A program made the position numbers and the translations under genes. A DNA stretch of 12,513 nucleotides from Gemmatimonadota bacterium (GTDB taxonomy: Bacteria; Gemmatimonadota; Gemmatimonadetes; Longimicrobiales; RSA9): contig JBBDRO010000059.1 in the NCBI GenBank assembly GCA_040905425.1, forward strand, positions 1 through 12,513. Direction: 5' to 3'. Below the pieces are notes generated by a model. The model made no database searches and was not told the origin of the DNA. It saw only the letters and a list, made by a program, of their open reading frames with translations. Positions 336-12,513 of this stretch are shown here, in pieces (position 1 is the stretch's first letter; each line of letters starts with the position of its first letter).

Positions 336-2786
336 CTACTGCCTGATCTCGGCGTCGGCCCGGTAGTAGTCCCCGAGCAGATGCTCGGCGAAGTACTCCT
401 GGAGCATGCGCTGGAAGTAGTCCTGCATGTCCCCGAAGCCGTGCGCCTTGCCGGGCATGATGAAGAGGTCGAAGCGCTTGTTGGCGTCGATGAGCGCCTT
501 GGCCAGCCGGATGGTGCCGGCGGGGTGCACGTTGTTGTCCATGTCACCGTGCACCAGCAGGAGCTTGCCCTTGAGGTTCTCGGCCAGCTCGTGGTTGGCC
601 GGGACGTGGATCTCGAAGGTGATCTCCTCCTCCTGCTCCTGCTCCTGGTCGCTGTCCGCGCCGTCAGCCACGTCCCGGTCCACCTTCTTGCGGACCTCCT
701 TCAGGCCGTGGTGCTGCTCGGACCAGTTCTGGTTGTAGACGTTGTTGTCATGGTTGCCGGCCGAGCTCACGCCCACCTTGAAGAAGTCATTGTAGGGCGG
801 CTGCAGGAGCGCCGCGGCCGTCATGAAGCCGCCGCCGGAGTGGCCGTAGATGCCCACCCGGTCGATGTCGATGAAGTGGTGGCGCGCGGCCAGCTGCTCG
901 ATGCCCGCCTTCTTATCGGCCAGGCCGTAGTCGCGCAGGTTGTAGTAGCCGTAGCTGTGGTAGGCGTTCGAGCGCCGCGGGCTGCCGCCCCGGTTGCCCA
1001 CCTGGATCACGATGAAGCCCAGCTGCGCCAGTTGCTGCCGCGAGTCCGTGGGTGAGAAGCTGGTGTTCACGCTCTCGGTCTGGGGACCCGGGTAGACGTA
1101 GGCGATGATGGGATACTTCTTGGACGGATCGAAGTCGAACGGCTTCCACATGTTGCCGTAGAGGTCCGTGATCCCGTCGGCGGCCTTCACCGAGAACGGC
1201 TCGGGCGGCGTCCAGCCGATCTCCTCGAGCGGCGCCGGATCGAAGGCCTCAAGGTCCATGATCTTGTTGCCGTTGCGGGCGTCGCGGAGCACCGCCACGC
1301 TCGGCACGTCGGGCTGCGAGTAGGAGTCAACCGCATACTTGAAGGACGGCGACAGCGACGTGCGGTGATCCCCCACGCCATTGTCCAGCAGCGTCAGCTG
1401 CGAGCCGTCCGCCTCCACCCGGTAGAGGTGGCTGAAGTAGGGGTTCTCACCCGGCTCCCGGCCCACGCCGCGGAAGAAGACGGTGTGGTTGATCGTGTCC
1501 ATGTCGGCAATGCCGTCCACGCGCCACGGTCCGGAGGTCAGCGCGCGCTTGTACTGGCCGTCGTGGCTGTACAGGTAGAGATGCCCCCAGCCGGTACGCT
1601 CGGACCACCACACCATGTCACCGCCGCGCTCCACGTACTGCACGCCGTTGCGCTCCAGGTGCGCGTCCTCCACGGACTCCTCGATGAGCGTCTTCACGCC
1701 CAGCGTGGCCAGATCCACCTCCAGGAGCTGGAGGTTGCGCTGCAGCCGGTCGCGCACCTGCATGCGCAGGCGCGAGGAATCGTGGATCCAGTGCATGTCC
1801 GTCTCGCGCTGGTCCTTGTACTTCTTGATGGGCAGCTCCGTGAGCTCGGTGTCACCGGCCTTCCAGGCGAAGACCTGCGTCTGCGTGACGTTCTCCTCAC
1901 CCGGCATGGAGTAGCTGTACTCCACCAGCTCCGGCCGGGGCTCGGCCAGCACGTTCACCAGATAGAGCTTGCCCACCTCGCGGGAGTCACTCCGCGAGAC
2001 ATAGAACGCCTCCCCATCGGGCGCCCAGTTCACACGGGCGCGGACGCGGGGATCGCGCGACCGATCGTTGTCATCCTCGTCGTCCTCCTCGTCCTCGTCA
2101 TCCTGCTGCTGCTGGCGCCGCACCTCGGTGGTGTCCCGGTTGCCGAAGGAGAAGTCTTCCTCCCCATCGGTCGTGAGCTGCGTGGTGTCCCCGGTGGCCA
2201 CGTTCACCACGAAGAGCTGATGCTCGCGCGCGAAGGCAAAGCGGGTGGAGTCGGGCGAGAAGTTCTTGAAGGCGTTCTCCTCCTCCTCTTCCTCCTCCTC
2301 CTCGGGCACCTCGGAGAGCGTCTGCGTCTTCATGTCGTAGCGGTACTCCTGCCGCTCCACCCGAAAGGTGAAGCTCGTACCGTCTTCCTCATCGTCGAAG
2401 TTCACCGAGTTGAAGGGCATGTCGTTCCACTCGTAGGGCTTCTTGGAGAGCATGGAGAGGTCCGCGGCCAGCTTCACGTGATCGAAGAGCGGCGTCCTGG
2501 CGCGATTCTTCGGTACCAGCAGCATGAAGCGCTTGCCCTCCGGGTCGCGCCACTGGTACCAGGCGGAGTCCGTGTCCGCGATCCAGCGGGCGCTCACGTT
2601 CGTGCTGGACACGATCGGGCGCAGGTTGTCACTGCTGAAGCGGGTGGCCAGCTCCCAGTTGGCGGTGTTGGGGGCGCGCTGGGCGGACGCAGGCACGGCC
2701 GCGGCAGCCAGCAGGACCAGGATGGCGGCCAGCCTGGCGGCCAGACGGATGGGCCGGATACGGCCCGGGGACGGGATCAGGGACAT
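336..2786 (-). CDS. Secreted S9B-family (dipeptidyl peptidase IV-like) serine peptidase: DPPIV N-terminal propeller plus alpha/beta-hydrolase domain, about 816 aa
   Basis: Signal peptide (RLAARLAAILVLLAAAAVPASA). Motifs KKYPIIAYVYPGPQ, nucleophile elbow GIYGHSGGGF, LLLVHGDMDNNVH (catalytic Asp) and PGKAHGF (catalytic His). Start chosen at ATG 2786 with GAGG upstream, rather than the ORF-track start at 2822. Confidence 0.93.
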   Translation of the reverse strand: MSLIPSPGRIRPIRLAARLAAILVLLAAAAVPASAQRAPNTANWELATRFSSDNLRPIVSSTNVSARWIADTDSAWYQWRDPEGKRFMLLVPKNRARTPLFDHVKLAADLSMLSKKPYEWNDMPFNSVNFDDEEDGTSFTFRVERQEYRYDMKTQTLSEVPEEEEEEEEENAFKNFSPDSTRFAFAREHQLFVVNVATGDTTQLTTDGEEDFSFGNRDTTEVRRQQQQDDEDEEDDEDDNDRSRDPRVRARVNWAPDGEAFYVSRSDSREVGKLYLVNVLAEPRPELVEYSYSMPGEENVTQTQVFAWKAGDTELTELPIKKYKDQRETDMHWIHDSSRLRMQVRDRLQRNLQLLEVDLATLGVKTLIEESVEDAHLERNGVQYVERGGDMVWWSERTGWGHLYLYSHDGQYKRALTSGPWRVDGIADMDTINHTVFFRGVGREPGENPYFSHLYRVEADGSQLTLLDNGVGDHRTSLSPSFKYAVDSYSQPDVPSVAVLRDARNGNKIMDLEAFDPAPLEEIGWTPPEPFSVKAADGITDLYGNMWKPFDFDPSKKYPIIAYVYPGPQTESVNTSFSPTDSRQQLAQLGFIVIQVGNRGGSPRRSNAYHSYGYYNLRDYGLADKKAGIEQLAARHHFIDIDRVGIYGHSGGGFMTAAALLQPPYNDFFKVGVSSAGNHDNNVYNQNWSEQHHGLKEVRKKVDRDVADGADSDQEQEQEEEITFEIHVPANHELAENLKGKLLLVHGDMDNNVHPAGTIRLAKALIDANKRFDLFIMPGKAHGFGDMQDYFQRMLQEYFAEHLLGDYYRADAEIRQ

Positions 2787-3016: not shown

Positions 3017-4303
3017 ATGCGCATGCAGTTCATGGCTCCGCTCACGGCCGCCCTGCTGACCCTCAGCGCCTGCGGGGCGGGAGATAATGCCTCCTCCTCC
3101 GCGCAGGTGAGCGCCTACGACAGCGCGGGCATCCGGATCGTCGAGACCGCCGCGCCGGCCTGGAGCGAACCCGGACAGGGGTGGCGCCTTGCCGCGGAGC
3201 CCACCCTGCAAATCGGCGTGGTTTCGGGCGAGCCGGAGTACCAGTTCGACCGCATCATGGGCACCGTGCGTTTCGACGACGGCACGATCGCGGTGGGCAC
3301 CATGGGCTCGGGCTCCATCCGGTACTACGACGCTGAGGGCAACTTCCTGCACGAGGCGGGGCGGTCGGGGGAGGGACCGGGGGAGTTCCGGCAGTTGATG
3401 GGCATCGGGCACATGGCGGGGGACACACTGTTCGCCGACAATTCCCACGAGGGCATCCTGCTCTTCGACCTGAGTGGCGAGTATCTGGGTGCGATCACCG
3501 CCGGCCGGACCATTATCGAAGAAGGCTTCGTCTGGCCAGCCGGATGGCTGGCCGACGGCACCGCCGTGGGGCTAACCACTCCTCAGGGTCCACCGGAGGG
3601 CTCGGTGGGGCAGGTGGTGGATTCGGCCAATGTTGTGATCTTCGACGGGGAGGAGTACGGCCCCGTGGTGATGAAGCTTCCGTCCACGGTCTGGGGGGAC
3701 GGCGCCGACCCGCGCCGTATGAGGCTGGAGTTCGGCCCCGGACCCGGAATGGCTTTCCACGGACAGCGTTTCTTGTACAGCTTCTCGCGGGACCCGGAGG
3801 TGTTCGTCTTCGAGGTGCGCACCTCCCCGGAGACCGGCATGCTCGTGCCCGAGATGAGGTCCATCCTGCGCCGGACCGCCTGGCAGCCGGATCCGGTCAC
3901 GCCCGAGCACGTAGAGGCTTTCGAAACACAGTACGTCGAGGGTGCCGTGGGTGAGGACGGATCGGGCAACAACGAGCGCCTCCAGCAGCTCCGACGCAAC
4001 AACCTCGAGCGCATGACCTTTGCCGACCACTTCCCCGCCCACGGCCGCATGCTCGTGGATCGCGCGGGCGGTCTGTGGCTGGAGCGCTACGCGCCGCGCC
4101 GCACCGATGGTGGCTGGAACGCCACCCGTGCCGAGCCCACAATCTGGGAGGCCTACGACCCGGACGGCGCCTGGCTGGGGCCTGTGGCCTTCCCGCCGGA
4201 CTTCTTCCCCTTCGAGATCGGTGAGGACTACGTGCTCGGCCTGTGGCGGGACGAGATGGACGTGGAGTACGTGCGGCTGTACGCGTTGGAGAAGAGAGTG
4301 TGA
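3017..4303 (+). CDS. Lipoprotein, 6-bladed beta-propeller (NHL/TolB-like) family, 428 aa
   Basis: RBS GGAGG at 3008-3012. Lipoprotein signal MRMQFMAPLTAALLTLSA-C. Family-typical motifs DSAGIRIVE, GRSGEGPGEF, MLVDRAGGLW, YDPDGAWLG and C-terminal RDEMDVEYVRLYAL. Confidence 0.8.
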   Translation: MRMQFMAPLTAALLTLSACGAGDNASSSAQVSAYDSAGIRIVETAAPAWSEPGQGWRLAAEPTLQIGVVSGEPEYQFDRIMGTVRFDDGTIAVGTMGSGSIRYYDAEGNFLHEAGRSGEGPGEFRQLMGIGHMAGDTLFADNSHEGILLFDLSGEYLGAITAGRTIIEEGFVWPAGWLADGTAVGLTTPQGPPEGSVGQVVDSANVVIFDGEEYGPVVMKLPSTVWGDGADPRRMRLEFGPGPGMAFHGQRFLYSFSRDPEVFVFEVRTSPETGMLVPEMRSILRRTAWQPDPVTPEHVEAFETQYVEGAVGEDGSGNNERLQQLRRNNLERMTFADHFPAHGRMLVDRAGGLWLERYAPRRTDGGWNATRAEPTIWEAYDPDGAWLGPVAFPPDFFPFEIGEDYVLGLWRDEMDVEYVRLYALEKRV

Positions 4304-4421
4304 GGTGGCGCAACTCCGGGAGGTGATAGCGACCGCCCAACCCGGATGCGCGCTATTTGCGTTTCCCGCTCCGGTCCAGACAAAATCCCCACGTGCGACC
4401 ACCTTCGAAAGGATCCTCCGG

Positions 4422-5201
4422 ATGCCAAGGAAGCTGCCGTTGACCGTGCGCCGGGCACTCGCGGCCGTGCTCAGCCCCTTCCACGTCCGGATCCGATCCG
4501 GCCCCAATCAGGGCGCCCGCTGGAGCCTGGCGGCGGCCGGCCGCCACGCGGCGGGCTCATTTGAAGCGGAGCGGATGCAGCTTCTGCGTGTGCTCGTGCG
4601 GGAGGGCAATGTCTTTTGGGACGTTGGCGCACACCATGGCTACGTGACCCTGCTTGCCAGCGGCCTGGTCGGCCAGGACGGTCGCGTGTACTCCTTCGAA
4701 CCCTCTGGCTACAATCACTATTTTCTGCAACGCCACGTGGCCATGAATCGGCTATGCAATGTGGAGGTTCGAAAGGTCGGCCTCGGAGCGCGCAATGAGG
4801 TCGTGAGCTTCGGAGGGGGCGCGTCGTCCCAAGCGCTGCACGTGGGGGGTGGACGCGAGCGGGTGTCGCTGACCACGATCCCGGACCTGCTACGAGCGGG
4901 CGTGCCAGCCCCCGATGTGCTCAAGGTGGACGTCGAAGGTTCCGAGGCGGACATCCTCGAGGCCGGCGCACAACATCTGCCCGGCCATTGCATCGCGGTG
5001 ATCGCGCTGCACCACCGTGAAGCCCGCGACCGCTCGATCGCGGCCCTCGTGGCGGCCGGCTTCGAGGTGATCGAGAGCAATAAAGCCCGCTACTGGGCCC
5101 AGCACGAACGCTGGGGGGAAGACCCCGACATCGTGGCGCTGGGGCAGGACCGTCGCGATCTCGCCGACAAGATCCGTCGACTGCCGGCCTTCTCCGGCTG
5201 A
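4422..5201 (+). CDS. FkbM-family SAM-dependent methyltransferase, 259 aa
   Basis: Motifs FWDVGAHHGY, VYSFEP and LKVDVEGSE. Start moved to ATG 4422 (AAGGA upstream) because the ORF-track start at 4020 overlaps the previous gene. Confidence 0.88.
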   Translation: MPRKLPLTVRRALAAVLSPFHVRIRSGPNQGARWSLAAAGRHAAGSFEAERMQLLRVLVREGNVFWDVGAHHGYVTLLASGLVGQDGRVYSFEPSGYNHYFLQRHVAMNRLCNVEVRKVGLGARNEVVSFGGGASSQALHVGGGRERVSLTTIPDLLRAGVPAPDVLKVDVEGSEADILEAGAQHLPGHCIAVIALHHREARDRSIAALVAAGFEVIESNKARYWAQHERWGEDPDIVALGQDRRDLADKIRRLPAFSG

Positions 5202-5238
5202 ACCGCTCGGGTTGGTGCGGGGAGGAGTACCTGGCGAC

Positions 5239-5325
5239 GTCACCACGCTCAGGTCCCCCACGGAGTTCGGCCATCAGCGCACCCTGGGCGGCGTGATCCT
5301 CCGGATGGCTTCCGGCGCGCTCTAC
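5239..5325 (+). pseudogene. Decayed fragment homologous to the 5' end of the ABC ATPase gene at 9897
   Basis: Ungapped manual alignment of 5239-5325 with 9921-10007 gives 69/87 identical nt. Translations are VTTLRSPTEFGHQRTLGGVILRMASGALY versus VTTHGLRKEFGHQRALDGVNLRVAPGAAY. Homology stops before Walker A. Confidence 0.8.
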
Positions 5326-5783
5326 GCTCCCGCCTCCGCCAGCTCCGACGTGCAGTGCGGGCAGCGGCGCGCCTTGATGGGGATGACCGTGGCGCAGAAG
5401 GGGCAGGTGGTCTCCGTGGGGGAGGCGGGCGCCTCTGCTTCCTTGCGCTTCATGGCGTTGATGGTGCGCACGATCAGGAACACCGCCGCCGCAACAATGA
5501 GGAAGCTCACGAGGCTGTTGATGAAGAGGCCGTAGTTCAGCGTGACGGCGCCCACGGCCTGCGCCGCCTCCAGCGTCAGGTAGGGCCCCGGCTCGGTGCC
5601 CGGCTGGAGGACCAGGAACATGTCCTTGAACTCCACACCCTTGAGCAGCAGCCCGACGGGAGGCATGAGAACATTGGAGACCATGGATGCCACCACGGTG
5701 CCGAAGGCCGCGCCCACCGCGATGCCCACCGCCATGTCCACCACGTTGCCGCGCGCAATGAATTCCCGGAATTCCTTGAACAT
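5322..5783 (-). CDS. mscL: Large-conductance mechanosensitive channel MscL with C-terminal zinc-ribbon-like extension, 153 aa
   Basis: MFKEFREFIARGNVVDMAVGIAVGAAFG and LNYGLFINSLVSFLIVAAAVFLIVR are canonical MscL S1/TM1/TM2 segments. GGAG RBS precedes ATG 5783. C-terminus CPFC...CPHC. Confidence 0.95.
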   Translation of the reverse strand: MFKEFREFIARGNVVDMAVGIAVGAAFGTVVASMVSNVLMPPVGLLLKGVEFKDMFLVLQPGTEPGPYLTLEAAQAVGAVTLNYGLFINSLVSFLIVAAAVFLIVRTINAMKRKEAEAPASPTETTCPFCATVIPIKARRCPHCTSELAEAGA

Positions 5784-5877
5784 GTGTGCTCCCTGGCGTG
5801 GGGCTGCGTGCCGCCCGGCAGGATCGGACGGCGGGCGTGTATGCTGGAACGAGGAGTGGAGGTGGGCAAGGGGGTGC

Positions 5878-6918
5878 GTGCTGGTGGCGATCAGCGCGCT
5901 TCTGGCGGCCTGCGCCGGGGACGCTCCCCGCACCGCCGAGCTCACGTTCCCTCCTCGCGACTCCGGCCAGGTGAACGCCGAGCCGGCGTGTGCCGACTGC
6001 ACGATCGCCTTCGACACGGTGGTCACGCTGGGTGCGGACAGCGACCCCGGCGGCATCAGCGAGCGTGCCTCCGTGGTCTGGGCCGTGGACAGCCGCGGCC
6101 GCTACTTCGTGCCGGTAGGGCGTGGCGAGGTCTTCATCTACGGCCCCGACGCCGCCTTCCAGCGTAGTCTGGCGCCCGCCGGTCCGGGCCCCGGTGAGCT
6201 GCCGGTGGGCCGGTCCCACGTGACCATCGGCCCCGCGGACACGGTGCGCGTGGTCTCGCAGTACCCCCATCCGGGCCGCATCCACGTCTTCGGACCCGAC
6301 CTGGCTTTTGTGCGGAGCGCCGCGCTGGACCCGGGCGTGGCTGGTCCGATCACCACCGCCTACCACGCAGCGAGCGATCGGTTCGTGTTCCCCGAAACCA
6401 GCGCGGCGCAGGCGAGCGTCAGCATCGTGGCCTCCGACGGCAGCCTGGCGGCCGCGTTCGATCCGCACGTGGAAGCCACGCCGCGGCGTGCACCGCACAG
6501 GCCCGTGGTGGCGCCGGACGGCACCATCTGGACCGTGCACGGCGATCTCTGGGGGATCGACGCATGGAGCCCGGACGGCCAGCTGCAGCGCACCTTTCGC
6601 GGGGCGATGCCATGGGCGGACGGGGAGCGGAACGGGCTCTCCGGCATGAGCTTCGATGACCAGGGCCATGCCTTCCTGCACGGCGCCGTCCGCAACATCG
6701 TCATGCTACCGGGCGGCGCCGGCATCGACATGGAGAACTCGTCCGTGCACGCCGTGGTGGAGGCCATGGACCTGGCCTCCGGCACCCTGCTGGCGCGAAC
6801 CACGTTCGAGGAGGGAATCAGCGGCGCCCCGTTCGGACCACTGCCGTGGCGCTTCGTGGAGTCGCCATCGGGCAACATCCGCCTGCAGGTTCTGCGACCG
6901 CGACTGGTGCGGAACTGA
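5878..6918 (+). CDS. Lipoprotein, 6-bladed beta-propeller family with N-terminal CxxC, about 346 aa (start uncertain)
   Basis: Lipobox LLAA-C. Motifs CADCTIAFDTVVTLG, AVDSRGRYFV, GPGPGEL and APDGTIW. GTG 5878 follows AAGGGG, but the signal peptide would lack a basic N-region, so the start is uncertain. Confidence 0.75.
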   Translation: MLVAISALLAACAGDAPRTAELTFPPRDSGQVNAEPACADCTIAFDTVVTLGADSDPGGISERASVVWAVDSRGRYFVPVGRGEVFIYGPDAAFQRSLAPAGPGPGELPVGRSHVTIGPADTVRVVSQYPHPGRIHVFGPDLAFVRSAALDPGVAGPITTAYHAASDRFVFPETSAAQASVSIVASDGSLAAAFDPHVEATPRRAPHRPVVAPDGTIWTVHGDLWGIDAWSPDGQLQRTFRGAMPWADGERNGLSGMSFDDQGHAFLHGAVRNIVMLPGGAGIDMENSSVHAVVEAMDLASGTLLARTTFEEGISGAPFGPLPWRFVESPSGNIRLQVLRPRLVRN

Positions 6919-6951
6919 GAGGCCTGTAGCAGGCTGGGAACGGGATGCTTC

Positions 6952-6980
6952 TTGACGTGGTATCCTGCTGGCGTTACTGT
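6952..6980 (+). promoter_or_regulatory. Sigma70-type promoter for the 7030-9371 operon
   Basis: TTGACG (6952-6957), exactly 17 bp, TACTGT (6975-6980). The -10 box overlaps the palindromic operator. Confidence 0.7.
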
Positions 6981-7000
6981 GCTAGCTAGCTAGCTCACTG
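6978..7000 (+). promoter_or_regulatory. Putative GntR/YtrA operator, copy 1 (TGTGCTAGCTAGCTAGCTCACTG)
   Basis: 20-bp palindrome 6978-6997 with 18/20 symmetric positions. The 23-mer is identical to 9420-9442, directly upstream of the GntR gene. Confidence 0.8.
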
Positions 7001-7029
7001 TCCCACGCGCTAACGAATTCGGAGGATAG

Positions 7030-8187
7030 GTGCGGGTTTCTGGTCACTCACAACGCGACCGCGCGAATCAGCCTCGGCAACGGCAGCGCAAACCGCTCCG
7101 GGAGCGGGAAAAGGCTGTGGCGGGATGGTGCGCGGTGCTCGCCGTGGTAAGTGCACTGGCCTGCGCGGACGATGCCCCCCCGCTCTCCGCCGTCGACTCG
7201 GCCGCGTGCGAAACATGTAGCATCACCCTCGAACCTGTTGCAGTGCTCGGGTCCCGCGAGGATACGATCTGGCCCACCCAGTATTCCACCCTGACGCAGA
7301 CACGAAGCGGCAATTTCATCATGGGCGCCCTGGACCACCCGGTCACCCACGGAATCTACGACGGCGCGGGCACGCTGCTTCGCACGTTTGGTCGCTATGG
7401 GATGGGGCCCGGGGAATACAGTTCTCCCATGACGAGATGGATGCGAGGGCCCGGAGATTCCGTTGGCGTGGTAGACCAAATGAGTGGCAGGTGGACGCTC
7501 GTCGATGATTCTGGCGGGGTGGTACGAACGCAGGAACTCACCTCGTCCACTTTCCATCAGATGGTATGGCTCGGGGACGGGCGCCGGGTCATGGTCGCTG
7601 ACATTCAGTCTCCCGATCTGGTCGGGAAACCTCTGCATGTCCTGGATGAGGACGCAAAAATCGTGACGTCGTTTGGGGAAACGGGCAACTATTCGAATGA
7701 GCTGGACGGCTGGCGGTTCATAGCTCCATCCAGCGCCGGTGGCGTCTGGGTGGCCCTCTACAACCGGTACCGGATTGAACACTACGATGCCGACCTGACC
7801 GTCACGAGAGTCCTGGAGTTCGAGCCGGACTGGTTCCTTCCGTGGGACCACACGCCGATGCCAGGCGAACAATTCCCTCCTGCCATGGCCGGGCTATGGG
7901 AGGACGATGGCCTCCTGTGGGTTCTCGTAAGCACACCCGATCGCAGGTGGGACCCGGCCGCAGCAAATATTCGTCCGGAGACGCGCCGGGAGCGTGATCT
8001 CACGTTCGAAAGGGATGCAGTCTTCGAAGTGATCGAACTCGAGTCTGGCAGTGTGGTGGCTCATCAACGATTTGACGAATACGTACTGAAGATTGAAGGC
8101 GTGGATCTGCTGTATTCGAAAGCCAAGCGACCGGTCGTTGGCGGATACGAGGTTACGGTGTTTTCTCCCACTCTCCACAGGAGGTGA
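7030..8187 (+). CDS. Lipoprotein, 6-bladed beta-propeller family with N-terminal CxxC, 385 aa
   Basis: RBS GGAGG at 7021-7025, GTG start, long basic N-region, then lipobox ALA-C. Motifs CETCSITLEPVAVLG, GRYGMGPGEY, GPGDSVGVVD, GGVWV and EDDGLLWV. Confidence 0.8.
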   Translation: MRVSGHSQRDRANQPRQRQRKPLREREKAVAGWCAVLAVVSALACADDAPPLSAVDSAACETCSITLEPVAVLGSREDTIWPTQYSTLTQTRSGNFIMGALDHPVTHGIYDGAGTLLRTFGRYGMGPGEYSSPMTRWMRGPGDSVGVVDQMSGRWTLVDDSGGVVRTQELTSSTFHQMVWLGDGRRVMVADIQSPDLVGKPLHVLDEDAKIVTSFGETGNYSNELDGWRFIAPSSAGGVWVALYNRYRIEHYDADLTVTRVLEFEPDWFLPWDHTPMPGEQFPPAMAGLWEDDGLLWVLVSTPDRRWDPAAANIRPETRRERDLTFERDAVFEVIELESGSVVAHQRFDEYVLKIEGVDLLYSKAKRPVVGGYEVTVFSPTLHRR

Positions 8188-8189
8188 AA

Positions 8190-8624
8190 ATGTTCAAAAA
8201 GCGTGTAGCTGCCACCGCCCTTTCGGTGTCGTTGCTGATGATGGCTGCCGGCACGGCGGCGGGCGATGATCTCCAGTGCAAGTGCAAGACGTTGACCTAT
8301 TCGGGCGGCTGGGACCACAACTTCAACTCCAACGGTGAGCTGCCGTACGAGTGTGACTATTCGGATGGGGAGTTCGACTACCCGTGCCACATCGACACCC
8401 TCGACGGTTCATGCAGTGGAGTGCACCGGCAGTGCGGTCCGGACTTCGCCTTCGATGCGGAGATGTCGGTAGTGGAGCTGGCGATGTATTCCGGTTTCGT
8501 CTACAACCGGGACAGGCAGGCGCTGCAAATGGTTGGTTGCAACGGCGTCGTGACGGCGAGTTTCAAGGTGGCTCCAGAGCTGCGCTTCGCCGTGCTCGAA
8601 CAACTGGCGGCGCGGTACGTGTAG
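8190..8624 (+). CDS. Secreted cysteine-rich small protein of unknown function, 144 aa
   Basis: Strong RBS AGGAGGT (8179-8185) overlapping the previous stop codon. Sec signal MFKKRVAATALSVSLLMMAAGTAAG. Seven Cys, six of them in the first ~57 mature residues. Alternative GTG start at 8184. Confidence 0.8.
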   Translation: MFKKRVAATALSVSLLMMAAGTAAGDDLQCKCKTLTYSGGWDHNFNSNGELPYECDYSDGEFDYPCHIDTLDGSCSGVHRQCGPDFAFDAEMSVVELAMYSGFVYNRDRQALQMVGCNGVVTASFKVAPELRFAVLEQLAARYV

Positions 8625-9371
8625 GTGCTGCGATCTCAGACGCTGTGCGCAAGCGTGTCTCGCGCCGCCGTGCTTCTTCTTGCCCTCGCCTTGGCCGCGT
8701 GCGGTGGCACGGACGGCCCTGCTGGATGGCCTGAGCCCGTCGTGATCGCGCTACCAGGCGATCACGCGGTGACTTTCGCGGGTCTTTACGTGGCTGAAGA
8801 TGAGGGCTTGTTTGGGGAGCGCGGCCTGGACGTCGGCTACCTGCACGCCGCGGACCCGGGGCAGTCGCTCGCAGTTGTTGGCAACGGCCAGGCCGCGTTT
8901 GCTGTGGTCCCCGCCGCCGACCTCGTGTCGGCACGCACCGCTGGCCTTCCCGTCATGTCGGTGGCCGTGCTGGAGCCGGCCGGATGGGGCGGCGATGCCG
9001 CGCCGGCCGGCTCATACGGTCGCGTGCTGGCAACCTCCTACGACCTGTTGGAGCGGGACACGGCCTTGGTGCGCGCTGTTGTGGGGGCCACGGTGCATGG
9101 ATGGAATCGAGCCATCGAGTCGCCGGCTGCCGCCGCGGCAGCGGTCACGGAGCGGGTATCCGGATCGGAGCTGCAGGCGGCCGAGCAATGGCTCCGAGAC
9201 CGCAGCGCCGGACTGCCGGCCGACAGCCAACAGGTGGGCAGATCGAACGCCGCAGGTTGGTCAGCGCTAATGGCCGCCCTTCGTGATGGCCAACGCATCG
9301 GGCGGCCGGTGCACGTGCAGACGGTGTTCACCGATGCGTACCTCCCGTACCCGCCCAGAATTCGACGTTAA
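8625..9371 (+). CDS. NMT1/THI5 (SsuA/ThiY)-like substrate-binding lipoprotein, internally shortened, 248 aa
   Basis: Lipobox LAA-C. Family motifs FAGLYVAEDEGLFGERGLDV, VGNGQAAFAV, ARTAGLPV, LVRAVVGATVHGWNRAIESP and VFTDAYLP. Starts immediately after the upstream TAG. Confidence 0.75.
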   Translation: MLRSQTLCASVSRAAVLLLALALAACGGTDGPAGWPEPVVIALPGDHAVTFAGLYVAEDEGLFGERGLDVGYLHAADPGQSLAVVGNGQAAFAVVPAADLVSARTAGLPVMSVAVLEPAGWGGDAAPAGSYGRVLATSYDLLERDTALVRAVVGATVHGWNRAIESPAAAAAAVTERVSGSELQAAEQWLRDRSAGLPADSQQVGRSNAAGWSALMAALRDGQRIGRPVHVQTVFTDAYLPYPPRIRR

Positions 9372-9390
9372 ACCTGGATCGTATCTGGGT

Positions 9391-9420
9391 GTGGCAGAGT
9401 TTGGCGTATCTAGGTACATT
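9391..9420 (+). promoter_or_regulatory. Candidate sigma70 promoter for the gntR-ABC operon
   Basis: GTGGCA (9391-9396), 18 bp, TACATT (9415-9420). The -10 box overlaps the first base of operator copy 2. The -35 box is weak. Confidence 0.45.
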
Positions 9421-9442
9421 GTGCTAGCTAGCTAGCTCACTG
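9420..9442 (+). promoter_or_regulatory. Putative GntR/YtrA operator, copy 2 (autoregulatory site)
   Basis: Identical 23-mer to 6978-7000, ending 17 bp before the GntR ATG. YtrA-subfamily regulators characteristically bind palindromes over their own promoter. Confidence 0.85.
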
Positions 9443-9459
9443 CCCCTCGGGAGCCCACC

Positions 9460-9900
9460 ATGCTCTTCCACATCGACGAGGCCGACCCCCGCCCCATCTA
9501 CGTCCAGATCATGGACGAGGTGCGGCGCGGGCTCATCACCGGCAAGCTGAAGCGCGGCGACCCCCTCCCCTCGGTGCGGGAGATGGCCGCCGACCTGTCG
9601 GTGAATCCGAACACGGTGAAGCAGGCCTATCGCGAGCTGGAGCGCGAAGGGCTGGCGGAGCCCCGCCGCGGGGAGGGGACCTTCGTGGCGGACGCGGCGC
9701 GCGTGAGCCGCGGGGAGCGGCGGTCGCTGGCGCGCGGCGTGGCGGAGCGGGCGCTCTGGGAAGCCATCCGGCACGGGCTATCGGCGGAGGAGTTCCTGGC
9801 GGCCGCGAAGGTGGTGGCGCGGCAGCGCGGCATGCTCGGGGAGGCCCCCGCCGCGGCGGTAGGAGCGGCCGGGACCGCGGACACCGGAGGCCGCCCGTGA
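9460..9900 (+). CDS. GntR-family transcriptional regulator, YtrA subfamily, 146 aa
   Basis: Winged HTH motifs PIYVQI, GDPLPSVREMAADLSVNPNTVKQAYRELEREG and RRGEGTFV. Short helical C-terminal domain. Directly upstream of an ABC ATPase, which is the typical YtrA arrangement. Confidence 0.93.
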   Translation: MLFHIDEADPRPIYVQIMDEVRRGLITGKLKRGDPLPSVREMAADLSVNPNTVKQAYRELEREGLAEPRRGEGTFVADAARVSRGERRSLARGVAERALWEAIRHGLSAEEFLAAAKVVARQRGMLGEAPAAAVGAAGTADTGGRP

Positions 9901-10856
9901 GCGATCACCCCCTGGACGGCGTCACCACGCATGGACTCCGCAAGGAATTCGGCCATCAGCGCGCCCTGGACGGCGTGAACCTCCGGGTGGCTCCCGGTGC
10001 CGCCTACCTCATGGCAGGGGAGAACGGTGCCGGGAAGTCCACCCTGCTGCGCATCCTGCTGGGGCTGCAGGAGGCCACCGCTGGATCCGTCAGTGTACTG
10101 GGCGTCGACCCCGCGGTGGACGGCGCGGGCGTGCGGGCGCTGGTGGGGTACATGCCCGACCGCGTGGACTTCGAGCACGGCTGGATGAGCGTGGACGCCG
10201 CGCTGCGCTTCCACGCCCGCTACCGGCCGCGCTGGGATCCGGCGTACGCCGCGGAGCTGATTGGCCAACTGGAGCTGCCGCGGGACCGTCGCTTATCAGG
10301 GCTTTCCAAGGGGCAGCGCCGCCGGCTCCAGCTGGTCCTCACGCTGGCGCACCGGCCGCCCATCGTGGTCATGGACGAGCCCACCGACGCTCTGGACCCG
10401 CGCATGCGCGAGCGCTTCGCGCAGCTGCTCTCGGCCTACCTGGCGGACACCGACGCCACGCTCATCCTCTCCACGCACGCCATCGCGGACGTGAAGTCCA
10501 TCCCCACCGACGTGGGCATCCTGCGCCAGGGGCAGCTCGTGCTGCAGTGCAAGCGCGAGGCGCTCAGAAACCGGCTGGTGCGGGTGAGTGCCGAGGTGCC
10601 TAATGACTGGCTGCCGCCGCGCGCCATCGGCGTGCGCACCATCTCGGAGGAGCACCGCGGCGGCGTGCTGCGGGCGGTGCTGTGGGCCTCGCCCGAGGAG
10701 GCGTGCGCGCTGCTGGAGAGCGCCGGCGCGGCCACGACCAGCCTGGACGCCCTGACACTGTCGGAGGCGGTGGTGGCCATGCTGGCCGCGCCACCGAGCT
10801 GGACGCCGGAAGCCGTCGAAGTGGAGATCGCGCTACTGCCAGGAGGTGTGCTGTGA
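9897..10856 (+). CDS. ABC transporter ATP-binding protein (YtrB/ABC-2 exporter type), 319 aa
   Basis: Walker A GENGAGKST, signature LSKGQRRR, Walker B/D-loop VVMDEPTDALD, H-loop STH. GTGA overlap with the gntR stop codon. Confidence 0.93.
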   Translation: MSDHPLDGVTTHGLRKEFGHQRALDGVNLRVAPGAAYLMAGENGAGKSTLLRILLGLQEATAGSVSVLGVDPAVDGAGVRALVGYMPDRVDFEHGWMSVDAALRFHARYRPRWDPAYAAELIGQLELPRDRRLSGLSKGQRRRLQLVLTLAHRPPIVVMDEPTDALDPRMRERFAQLLSAYLADTDATLILSTHAIADVKSIPTDVGILRQGQLVLQCKREALRNRLVRVSAEVPNDWLPPRAIGVRTISEEHRGGVLRAVLWASPEEACALLESAGAATTSLDALTLSEAVVAMLAAPPSWTPEAVEVEIALLPGGVL

Positions 10857-11656
10857 GTGCCCGTGAGACCATGCTGTGGACCGCGCCGACGTTCAGCCCC
10901 GTGATTCCGCGTGTGGCGTTCCGGGACGTGCTCGCGGCGCAACTCTGGATGCTCTGGGACAGCCGGCGGGTGGCGGTGCTGGTGGTGAGCCTGGGGCTGG
11001 CCATGTTCATCCCGCTCCAGCCCGGCCACGGCATGATGCCCTTTCTGGTCGGCATCCACATCACCGTGCTCGTGGCTGCCCTCCTCTGGGGCGCGGTGGT
11101 CTGGCACGCGCAGGACCCGGACCACCGCATGGAGCACCGGGAGATGCCGGTGGACTTCAAGACCCATGACCTGGCCCGCGTGCTGGCGGGCGCACTGCTC
11201 TTTGCCGGCGCGTACGGGGTGATCGCCATCGCGGCCCTCTTCGCGCCGCCGGTGATCGGCGGGCCGCCCGCGCTTGCGGGCTGGCAGCTGTTCGGCATGG
11301 CGGCCGGGCTCATGGCGGCCTACCTGTTCGGCTCGGCGGCGGGGATCGCCCTCCGCCATCCCATCGCGGGGCTGTCCATCTTCCTGGTGGGCTACATCCT
11401 GCTCGGGCAGGTGCTCATGGTGGTGGTGCGGCACCCGACCCGCCGGTTCGTGACCGAGCTGCTCGGCACCTGGGGACTCGAGCCCGCCGTCATGGGGCCG
11501 GCGGCCATGCACACGTTTGGTCGGGCCGGCATGATGACGTACGCCTTTCCGCCGACTGCGGAGTGGGTGCCCGCCGTCTGCTTCTGGTTCGGTCTGAGTA
11601 TCCTGCTCTTCCTGCTGGCGCTCTCGCCGCCGCGCTTCCTGCGCCGCCGCACCTGA
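10853..11656 (+). CDS. Integral membrane protein, probable ABC-2-type permease, 267 aa
   Basis: RBS AGGAGG at 10841-10846 and GTGA overlap with the ATPase stop. About six hydrophobic segments. The permease role is inferred from gene position. Confidence 0.75.
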   Translation: MSARETMLWTAPTFSPVIPRVAFRDVLAAQLWMLWDSRRVAVLVVSLGLAMFIPLQPGHGMMPFLVGIHITVLVAALLWGAVVWHAQDPDHRMEHREMPVDFKTHDLARVLAGALLFAGAYGVIAIAALFAPPVIGGPPALAGWQLFGMAAGLMAAYLFGSAAGIALRHPIAGLSIFLVGYILLGQVLMVVVRHPTRRFVTELLGTWGLEPAVMGPAAMHTFGRAGMMTYAFPPTAEWVPAVCFWFGLSILLFLLALSPPRFLRRRT

Positions 11657-11669
11657 GCCGCCGGTCAGT

Positions 11670-11699
11670 GGCGGGCCGGACCCACACCTCCGGCCCGCC
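11670..11699 (+). terminator. GC-rich stem-loop after the permease (possible terminator or mRNA-stabilising hairpin)
   Basis: Perfect 11-bp stem GGCGGGCCGGA (11670-11680) / TCCGGCCCGCC (11689-11699), 8-nt loop, 13 bp after the stop. No U-tract. Confidence 0.45.
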
Positions 11700-11780
11700 G
11701 CCCCTCGCCGAAACCACCGCGCGCCCGCTATCGTATCGATCCCGTTCACCCACACGCGTTCCCTCACCGGGATTTCTGCC

Positions 11781-12513
11781 ATGCGACGCCGCATATCCTT
11801 CTTCGCCGCCCTCCTCGTGCTCCTGCTGCCCGGCTGCGAGCCGGCCCCGGACGCGGCCGACTGGGAGCAGATGTCCGACCGCGCGGAAGCCGAGGCCATG
11901 GAGCGGTCGCTGGAGCGGAACACGGGCACCATGACGCTGGAACCGCAGTGCGCCGACTGCCAGATCATCACGCGCACCGTGGCCACGCTCGGTGATCCGT
12001 CGGATCCGGCCAGCGTGGGCCCTATGGCGGAGGTGGCGGCCGACTCCGCCCTCACCACCTTCTACGTGCACTCGAGCACCTTCGGCGGCCAGATCCTGGT
12101 CTATGGCAAGGACGGCCGGCTCATCCGCACGCAGGGCCAGCCGGGTGAGGGACCCGGCGAGTTCGGCGGGCAGCTCATGCTGGACGTGGGCCGGGGAGAC
12201 TCGCTGCACGTGCTGCAGACCCGGCCGCCGCGCTACACGGTCTGGACGCCCGAAGGGGAGCTGGCACGCACCGTCCCCATCGAGCGGCGCTTCCAGGACT
12301 TCGAGGTCCTGCCCTCCGGCGACCTCATCCTGGCCGCACCGGAGCCCACGCCGCGCGGTGACACCTACCGCCTGGTCCGCCTCTCGCCCACGGGCGAGAC
12401 GCTCCAGGTCTTCGACCCCACCACGGAGGATGACACCGGCGTCTACTTCCGCCGCATCGGCGTGGCGGGTGACTGGATCTGGGCGGCCTCGCTGGCGCGC
12501 TGGGAGGTGGACG
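11781..12513 (+). CDS. Lipoprotein, 6-bladed beta-propeller family with N-terminal CxxC (partial, runs off the right edge; absent from ORF track)
   Basis: Manual translation from ATG 11781: MRRRISFFAALLVLLLPG-C (lipobox), then QCADCQIITRTVATLGDPSDP, YGKDGRLIRTQGQPGEGPGEF and GRGDSLHV. No stop before the window end. Confidence 0.85.
   Translation, partial: MRRRISFFAALLVLLLPGCEPAPDAADWEQMSDRAEAEAMERSLERNTGTMTLEPQCADCQIITRTVATLGDPSDPASVGPMAEVAADSALTTFYVHSSTFGGQILVYGKDGRLIRTQGQPGEGPGEFGGQLMLDVGRGDSLHVLQTRPPRYTVWTPEGELARTVPIERRFQDFEVLPSGDLILAAPEPTPRGDTYRLVRLSPTGETLQVFDPTTEDDTGVYFRRIGVAGDWIWAASLARWEVD

Follow-up and report, generated by a model that had tools for sequence, protein, structure and literature searches.

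The window analysed here is a stretch of 12,513 nt at the start of a 31,595-bp contig (C59) of a Gemmatimonadota genome (4.12 Mb, 96.7% complete), labelled G000 in a scheme where G denotes a genome, C a contig and L a locus. It carries two adjacent gene sets on the forward strand, and all six of their open reading frames were found to be present. The first set encodes a predicted lipoprotein with a CxxC motif and a six-bladed, NHL-like beta-propeller (7030-8187, 385 amino acids (aa), start codon uncertain), an exported acidic protein with seven cysteines and three histidines (8190-8624, 144 aa; the Cys/His protein) and a one-lobed NMT1/THI5-like lipoprotein (8625-9371, 248 aa). The second encodes a putative YtrA-subfamily GntR repressor (9460-9900, 146 aa), an ATP-binding cassette (ABC) ATPase of the DrrA/PmtA-like exporter class (9897-10856, 319 aa) and a membrane subunit with six helices predicted from hydropathy (10853-11656, 267 aa). 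An earlier reading made from the letters of the window alone (the sequence-only reading) had stated that the genes inside each unit abut or overlap. We found this to be so: a 2-nt gap follows the propeller gene, the next two genes abut at 8624/8625, and 4-nt overlaps join ytrA to the ATPase gene (9897-9900) and the ATPase gene to the permease gene (10853-10856). That reading did not recognise the combination as a characterised system, and we likewise found no description of it in the literature.

We read the locus as probably an ordinary YtrA-ABC operon (ytrA, ATPase and permease genes) accompanied by a gained accessory operon, here called the cassette. The G+C content at third codon positions (GC3) was 0.69-0.79 for the cassette genes, compared with 0.88-0.95 for the flanking genes. 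The best-matching sequencing runs were sediment metagenomes from a single study. A sister metagenome contig, L092, retains the six genes in the same order together with both operators and the first promoter; its YtrA is 95% identical, and DNA identity is about 87% across 6.6 kb. The ratio of nonsynonymous to synonymous substitution (dN/dS) against L092 was 0.14-0.30 for all genes, indicating purifying selection, with values of 0.20 for the propeller, 0.17 for the Cys/His protein and 0.21 for the NMT1 lipoprotein. One contig of run X3 covers 5771-9608 and shows 43 differences. A relative at greater distance is represented in pieces, over 8264-9001 and 9460-11451, in run X5, which comes from another study. 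Since L092 has the same arrangement and the X3 contig covers the junctions within its span, we rejected an assembly artefact. Overall, we take the locus to be real and lineage-restricted, and its two gene sets to be probably co-regulated.

Operators and promoters of the two gene sets

A 23-bp palindrome-containing sequence had been noted upstream of both units. The repeat is exact, lying at 6978-7000 and 9420-9442 within a conserved element of 26 bp (operator 1, 6975-7000; operator 2, 9417-9442), and 200 shuffles gave no match to it at three or fewer mismatches. The sequence-only reading had also called for a genome-wide operator scan. This showed that the genome contains exactly two copies of the 23-mer, the next non-self match having six mismatches. 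We then scored the genome with an independent 26-bp matrix, trained on upstream stretches of 90 nt from 23 ytrA homologues in family genomes, with the own genome excluded; its consensus is TAGTGTATTAG-N4-CTAATACACTA. The highest sites were C83:4423 (29.4), which heads a propeller-ytrA-ABC operon, and C81:77996 (22.0), which precedes a second ytrA, followed at ranks 3-5 by operator 1 (21.5), an intragenic site (14.5) and operator 2 (14.4). Four of the top five sites thus precede one of the three ytrA operons or the cassette. Leave-one-out scores of the training sites were 19.9-41.3, plus one at 1.3, so that operator 1 falls inside their range, whereas operator 2 scores weakly in this genome.

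The spacing of the window's element, xGTG-N16-CACx, equals the GGTG-N16-CACC quoted for Xanthomonas YtrA (PMC6746942), and its geometry agrees with the G3/C20 spacing given for MbrR (bioRxiv 10.64898/2026.02.18.706565). An exact 20-mer search allowing two mismatches found no match in 60 relatives, the operator being conserved as a degenerate motif instead. On these sequence comparisons, the repeat is a predicted YtrA-family operator. A second operator subtype, ACTGTTG/ACTGTAG ... CAACAGT, was observed at L032, L203, L204, L206, L207 and G000:C81; it accompanies some of the ytrA genes, and its scores on the main matrix are low.

The repeat had been placed over the -10 regions of both units, which holds well for the first and only marginally for the second. 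The predicted sigma-70 promoter P1 (6952-6980) consists of TTGACG (6952-6957), a 17-nt spacer and TACTGT (6975-6980). These hexamers, read from the sequence, match 8 of 12 consensus positions, and a strict sigma-70 scan found no site. Most ytrA promoters of relatives have the same layout as P1, with TTGAC 17-18 nt upstream and the left half-site over the -10. The second promoter, P2 (9391-9420), is weaker, with GTGGCA (9391-9396) as a poor -35, an 18-nt spacer and TACATT (9415-9420), and contains a 24-nt insertion relative to L092.

The proposal of two separate transcription units found support in gene content and none at the boundary, where no terminator was found between 9371 and 9460. All six genes might instead form one operon transcribed from P1, with the second operator acting internally as a roadblock or weak promoter, in the manner of G000:C83. 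The region 9360-9460 has neither a terminator-like site nor a stable hairpin (z 0.27), P2 lacks a good -35 here, and the sole strong hairpin follows the permease gene. This 13-bp GC-rich stem (11668-11701), which has no U-tract and is the probable transcript end, gave a folding z of -2.55 (11650-11780) here and -2.65 in L092. Read-through from P1 into the ytrA genes is plausible. In L092, however, P2 is a fair promoter (TTGAAG-17-TATATT, with operator 2 scoring 21.0) and the intergenic region folds (z -2.33). Operator 2 of the window is separated from the start of ytrA by 17 nt, a distance like those in stand-alone ytrA promoters (7-41 nt). We consider a single operon to have a reasonable chance while falling short of our preference, and it is functionally compatible with the explanation favoured below.

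Both operators outlast their surroundings. In L092, operator 1 keeps 25 of 26 bases, compared with 59 of 81 in the remaining intergenic region, and operator 2 keeps 23 of 26, compared with 26 of 38; both P1 hexamers are unchanged while the spacer diverged. Perfect identity of the two operators in the window appears unneeded, because those of L092 differ from each other. Since the YtrA-type operator is shared, and since the sister genome keeps the genes, the operators and P1, co-regulation of the cassette and the ytr genes is very likely, as judged from sequence. The inference of probable co-regulation that had been drawn from the shared operator is therefore supported by the matrix ranks and by L092.

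The same conservation bears on the idea that the cassette merely landed behind a duplicated ytr promoter and was kept there for expression, YtrA control being physiologically meaningless. Such hitch-hiking would fit the lineage restriction of the arrangement, the regulators upstream of the pair elsewhere, which vary freely, and a decayed ABC 5' end at 5235-5325 that shows local duplication of ytr DNA. Yet it is operator 1 itself (25/26, versus 73% in the flanks) that is conserved, not just the -35 and -10 hexamers; synonymous divergence of the adjacent genes is 0.36-0.70, and repression would be easily lost by mutation if it were neutral. We regard hitch-hiking as unlikely.

The repressor, the ABC genes and the one-lobed lipoprotein

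The product of 9460-9900 had been described as a YtrA-type GntR regulator, and its features agree with this. A Pfam GntR winged helix covers residues 14-76 (2e-17), the gene lies in an ABC operon, and a long palindrome stands upstream of it. Homology stops near residue 120 and is followed by an Ala/Gly tail; in length this would leave room for the short C-terminal domain (about 50 aa, two helices) of the subfamily. Homologues of ytrA were found in 23 of 73 family genomes, mostly as ytrA-ABC-permease. YtrA proteins are described in PMC4494728 as having a reduced effector domain and usually controlling one ABC operon via one site.

The ATPase matched NCBIfam drrA (2.6e-35) and PmtA (3.5e-30), both under cut-off. 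Measured against the equivalog cut-offs, the scores were 61.8 of 200 bits for PmtR, the repressor family, and 105.2 of 350 for PmtA. Only ABC domains were detected in the ATPase, with no C39 peptidase domain, and a scan of the genome collection with it returned just distant ABC genes of other phyla. The permease is homologous to that of the C81 ytr operon of this genome, which holds three YtrA paralogues (C59, C81 and C83).

Several further YtrA loci were observed. The ytrA-ABC operon at G000:C83:4423-7926 has a propeller gene in first position, and that at G000:C81:77996-81379 has one directly after the permease gene, so that a propeller accompanies all three ytr operons of this genome. At L339, L341 and L342 (genus g50), a propeller with an extra C-terminal domain is the first gene under a YtrA operator. 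A homologue of that propeller lies behind a perfect operator match at L239 (G207:C18), on a contig other than that of ytrA, a possible trans regulon. At L197 (G046:C76), a YtrA operator heads an ABC ATPase gene and a 1194-aa permease-aminopeptidase-like fusion, with domains assigned from motifs, before ytrA.

The protein encoded at 8625-9371 had been called a one-lobed binding protein. Its Pfam NMT1 match is strong (4.9e-18; 66.3 bits, cut-off 20.5) and its first Atlas match scored 0.96. It aligns to residues 18-98 of 4nmy and to residues 197-302, the second stretch being weak on its own, with the roughly 100 central residues (99-196) replaced by about 7, and we found the earlier description to be correct. 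The first-lobe sequence and the C-terminal return segment are those of the NMT1/THI5 binding proteins 4nmy and 3ix1. These have two lobes; in the window protein the second is deleted, and no importer genes adjoin. With this query, no match was found in 72 family genomes, and a search in which 8000 candidates were scored gave two clusters, one of them the protein itself. The one-lobed lipoprotein is real and was found in this lineage only. A single lobe is unable to close on a ligand as the two-lobed parent does. A dN/dS of 0.21 in a protein that cannot close in this way makes a new role, in binding or as an adaptor, probable.

The propeller and its Cys/His partner

The propeller carries CxxC at residues 60-63 and a lipobox-like Cys45, in line with the earlier assignment as a CxxC propeller lipoprotein, which remains a prediction. 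Its AlphaFold2 model consists of all-beta repeats (pLDDT 92), and the best Foldseek matches were NHL domains and the Bacteroides propellers 4raa and 3s9j (TM 0.5-0.6). The modelled six-bladed fold is the same as in these DUF5128/NHL propellers. The window propeller itself had no Pfam match, and 19 of 27 homologues matched PF17170 (DUF5128) at E<=0.01, 12 of them above cut-off. Relatives are abundant: 4004 were found among 50%-identity representatives, and this genome alone has about 100 propeller-like frames (102 profile matches), so that a propeller adjoining any given gene is not rare. Three further CxxC propeller lipoprotein genes, at C59:5845-6918, 11781-12513 and 13048-14166, flank the regulon without an operator or a Cys/His partner; the first two have native GC3 (0.88 and 0.93). 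A 100-N scaffold gap (C59:12514-12613) interrupts the gene at 11781, whose counterpart in L092 is complete (371 aa).

The Cys/His protein has a Sec-type signal extending to about residue 26, recognised by eye and by hydropathy from a basic N-region, a hydrophobic stretch and a small-residue cleavage motif. The mature part of 118 residues comprises a variable Cys/His core and a conserved C-terminal alpha/beta domain. Single-sequence searches returned the protein itself (1 of 17 candidates), nothing in 60 relatives (0/60) and no Atlas match. A profile seeded with small Cys-rich frames adjoining paralogous propellers detected 10 copies in this genome and matches in 13 of 73 family genomes. Across the class, the family occurs in at least 61 of 401 genomes, scoring being limited to 9 candidates in each, and a genome may have as many as 10 copies; a word-indexed search with a 30-row profile gave 4 proteins. 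The nearest non-sister relative belongs to another genus (37%), not to the protein's own paralogues. At L168 (G399:C17) and L090 (G094:C53), one locus has a Cys/His gene interrupted by stop codons, and the other has a near-exact Cys/His gene duplicate flanking the propeller, beside IS21 genes.

An alignment of 52 cognate pairs revealed five cysteines kept in 48-52 rows, His43 in 50 and His79 in 49, with the middle histidine split over two columns (37+11). As far as sequence can tell, the three conserved histidines may form a site for Zn or Cu, given that the exported domain around them is acidic and rich in disulfides. Family members have a median of seven cysteines and a median net charge of -10. 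Since none of the 52 is net positive, a cationic antimicrobial or bacteriocin role is unlikely and was rejected. No Pfam family fitted 30 members beyond three chance matches (E 0.04-0.07). The model of the protein has a pLDDT of 66.7 with only residues 90-140 confident, and a fold search with it gave no match at Z>=5, which says nothing on fold novelty.

In Bacteroidota, NVEALA-propeller neighbourhoods place a small exported protein beside a propeller, and an analogy with them had been drawn. It stands for organisation, a small exported Cys-containing protein beside a propeller, and fails for family: none of the 30 members matched NVEALA (PF14055) at E<=0.1. The window protein differs in lacking the motif, in having no Pfam family, and in its conserved C-terminal domain and three histidines. 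We found no published account of the propeller and 7-Cys/3-His pair in a search of main texts, and nothing on NVEALA, DUF5128 or a Gemmatimonad together with YtrA among mostly non-subscription papers.

The predicted link between the Cys-rich protein and propellers is supported. A same-strand propeller gene adjoins 36 of 38 Cys/His genes outside this genome and was found at every one of 29 class-level loci that had flanks of 1.5 kb, some of which are also among the 38; within this genome it adjoins 8 of the 9 other copies, where seeds were chosen by adjacency. The CxxC motif is kept in 43-46 of the 52 paired propellers. Partner distances are weakly correlated (Mantel r 0.18, reached by 2 of 999 permutations; nearest-neighbour agreement 20/52), with kin being non-independent. 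Complex prediction for the two proteins scored 0.00 in two runs, in which the propeller had no alignment and controls were not folded, so that the score speaks neither for nor against a complex. All nine paired propellers of this genome have GC3 of 0.53-0.71 (0.69 for the window's), while 91 unpaired propellers have a median of 0.86 (p=6e-6). Several Cys/His loci have transposases or integrases nearby, and both features fit a mobile cassette.

The regulators near the pair differ from copy to copy. Of the 9 other copies in this genome, 5 are immediately preceded by a sigma-70-type gene, as detected with a sigma profile built partly from those same genes, and one by a response regulator gene; LuxR, AraC or BlaI genes lie near others. 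At L216, L217, L218, L220 and L221 (G000 C58, C32, C100, C9 and C74), the upstream genes are divergent sigma-70 genes resembling the extracytoplasmic function (ECF) type, and no recognisable anti-sigma gene was found at these loci. The pair may be an output of the ECF-like sigma genes or may control them.

We next considered linkage to ytrA-ABC, which the sequence-only reading had set in advance as a test of its proposal. The comparison covered 71 other genomes with a total of 152 Cys/His genes; ytrA was detected in 30 of these genomes, which account for 64 of the genes. A single Cys/His gene lies within 5 kb of ytrA, compared with 0.2 expected (P about 0.19). The chance estimate ignores contig breaks, and ytrA was called at 1e-25 for the family and 1e-14 for the class. 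The single case, G247:C175, has the order sigma gene, propeller, Cys/His gene, transposase-like fragments, operator and ytrA; it was rejected as a second example, the pair having no operator in front. Conserved linkage to ytrA-ABC is therefore not supported. Flanks of up to 8 kb at 20 family loci contained no ytrA, ABC or NMT1 homologue, with a best matrix score of 16.1, intragenic; at 12 class loci all matrix scores were below 7. A degenerate operator pattern had no match at another pair in the 30 genomes having both genes; it captures 40 of 44 known sites, misses operator 2 and is near background at one mismatch. From the other direction, 56 other ytrA genes were examined, 38 of them with at least 3 kb upstream. 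None of these 38 has two operators around a cassette; one has the pair (G247) and three, all of one genus, have a propeller of another subfamily between operator and ytrA.

These results bear on the function that had first been proposed, a dedicated secreted-peptide module. In it the Cys-rich protein would serve for signalling or antagonism, with the propeller acting as its receptor or conferring immunity, and the ABC complex would export or sense it, in the manner of PmtR/Pmt and the staphylococcal phenol-soluble modulins (PSMs). The operator shared by both units would suit such a module, as would the tight (36/38) and weakly co-diverging pairing (20/52), PmtR and PmtA among the best NCBIfam matches, and the second pair 2.1 kb from ytrA at G247:C175. 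Fast divergence, many paralogues and nearby transposases also resemble polymorphic toxin-immunity or ligand-receptor pairs. However, for 151 of the 152 homologues no ytrA was detected within 5 kb, and the G247:C175 case is within chance, with its own sigma gene, transposase-like fragments before ytrA and no operator. The operator pattern is absent from other pairs in the 30 genomes, the protein has a Sec-type signal and the ATPase no C39 domain, no fusion or outer-membrane partner occurs among the window's genes, and the family is strongly acidic. Unlike the window protein, a 118-residue acidic domain exported via Sec, PSMs are small amphipathic peptides that carry no signal. PmtR-PmtABCD of Staphylococcus aureus shares the plan of a GntR repressor of an ABC exporter (PMC5080381), and scores here are far under cut-off. 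With no general ytrA linkage, a Sec-type signal and an acidic family, the module found no support and we hold it to be very unlikely.

Elsewhere in the window, an S9/DPP-IV-type peptidase gene with acidic insertions (336-2786, reverse strand), otherwise ordinary, is followed by a GC-rich terminator-like hairpin (195-240). The decayed copy of the ABC ATPase gene 5' end (5235-5325, forward strand; 79% to 9917-10007 and 82.5% to the L092 gene) has an FkbM methyltransferase gene on one side and, on the other, the 3' end of mscL, whose product has a C-terminal zinc-ribbon-like CxxC pair. This block, at about 4300-5850, is absent from L092, and its FkbM part is replaced in run X5.

Proposed wiring and its meaning

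Our favoured explanation is that a copy of the ytrA promoter and operator would have been placed before a mobile cassette encoding the propeller lipoprotein, its 7-Cys/3-His partner and the one-lobed NMT1-derived lipoprotein. YtrA dimers would in all likelihood repress P1 and P2 from their -10/start regions. An envelope-active compound handled by the ABC complex could then cause the ATPase to sequester YtrA and turn on all six genes, a step to which we give even weight and which is modelled on streptococcal MbrR/MbrA. In Streptococcus salivarius the repressor is sequestered by the ATPase, and its palindrome recurs at accessory operons (bioRxiv 10.64898/2026.02.18.706565). By analogy, the wiring here may be MbrR-like, with the cassette as an accessory output.

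The three cassette proteins would very probably leave via Sec/Lol and not via the ABC complex, judging from their signal peptides. Because of its Sec-type signal the Cys/His protein should not need the ABC complex, and its ABC export, as once proposed, is unlikely. Since the exported proteins carry Sec or lipoprotein signals, the ABC complex is more likely a sensor or detoxifier than an exporter. We suggest tentatively that the Cys/His protein may be a disulfide-stapled acidic domain with a three-His Zn/Cu site. In the periplasm its own propeller would hold or chaperone it, and it would serve as a protective binder or metal buffer in envelope stress.

The regulatory core is of a known type; the version of a YtrA regulon with exported, undescribed passengers is new. 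Like the window's system, MbrR-MbrAB has no sensor kinase; its YtrA repressor is cotranscribed with the genes of an ABC ATPase and a permease, and a single palindrome recurs before accessory operons. MbrR is a documented YtrA regulon with palindrome-sharing accessory operons (bioRxiv 10.64898/2026.02.18.706565). Its accessory genes encode a second ABC system, a flotillin and a CaaX protease, unlike the exported undescribed proteins of this diderm host. Bacillus subtilis ytrGABCDEF (PMC12772383) and the YtrA regulons of Suvorova 2015 (PMC4494728) share the short GntR repressor, the long palindrome with distant half-sites and the ABC operon. The latter regulons are reported to be mostly single-operon and single-site, whereas two sites and three extra exported proteins are found here.

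Several points weigh against this explanation. The six-gene arrangement is confined to this genome and its close relatives (L092 and runs X3 and X5), and because it is limited to one lineage comparative genomics cannot show an adaptive value of the co-regulation. As the genome has three YtrA paralogues, operator 1 is assigned its binder through identity with operator 2. Operator 2, at 14.4, is under all but one leave-one-out score and level with the intragenic chance match, and P2 is degenerate in this genome. Co-divergence of the pair members is weak, and the case for a metal role consists of the conserved residues. Finally, the B. subtilis ytr operon was argued in 2025 not to be a dedicated antibiotic-stress response, and may answer cell-wall precursor build-up and not protect against antibiotics (PMC12772383).

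A bolder and quite improbable extension is that the six genes form a diderm envelope-defence circuit of new design. The ABC complex would sense an envelope-active peptide or metal complex and free YtrA repression, the propeller and its three-His partner would work in the periplasm as a polymorphic pair, either a metal-dependent trap or a receptor with its ligand, and the one-lobed protein would be an adaptor passing cargo or signal to the permease. On this extension the pair, found across the class, would be a new plug-in periplasmic effector family wired by lineage to ECF sigma, LuxR, AraC, BlaI or YtrA regulators.

The propeller and 7-Cys/3-His pair is widespread in the class and uncharacterised. 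This copy alone has been seen with an identifiable repressor and operator, so that a P1/ytrA/ABC reporter could reveal the inducing signal and, with it, the condition in which the pair is useful. The locus also supplies a natural single-lobed solute-binding protein under purifying selection, and it would allow the ABC-sequestration mechanism, lately put forward for YtrA repressors, to be tested in a diderm.

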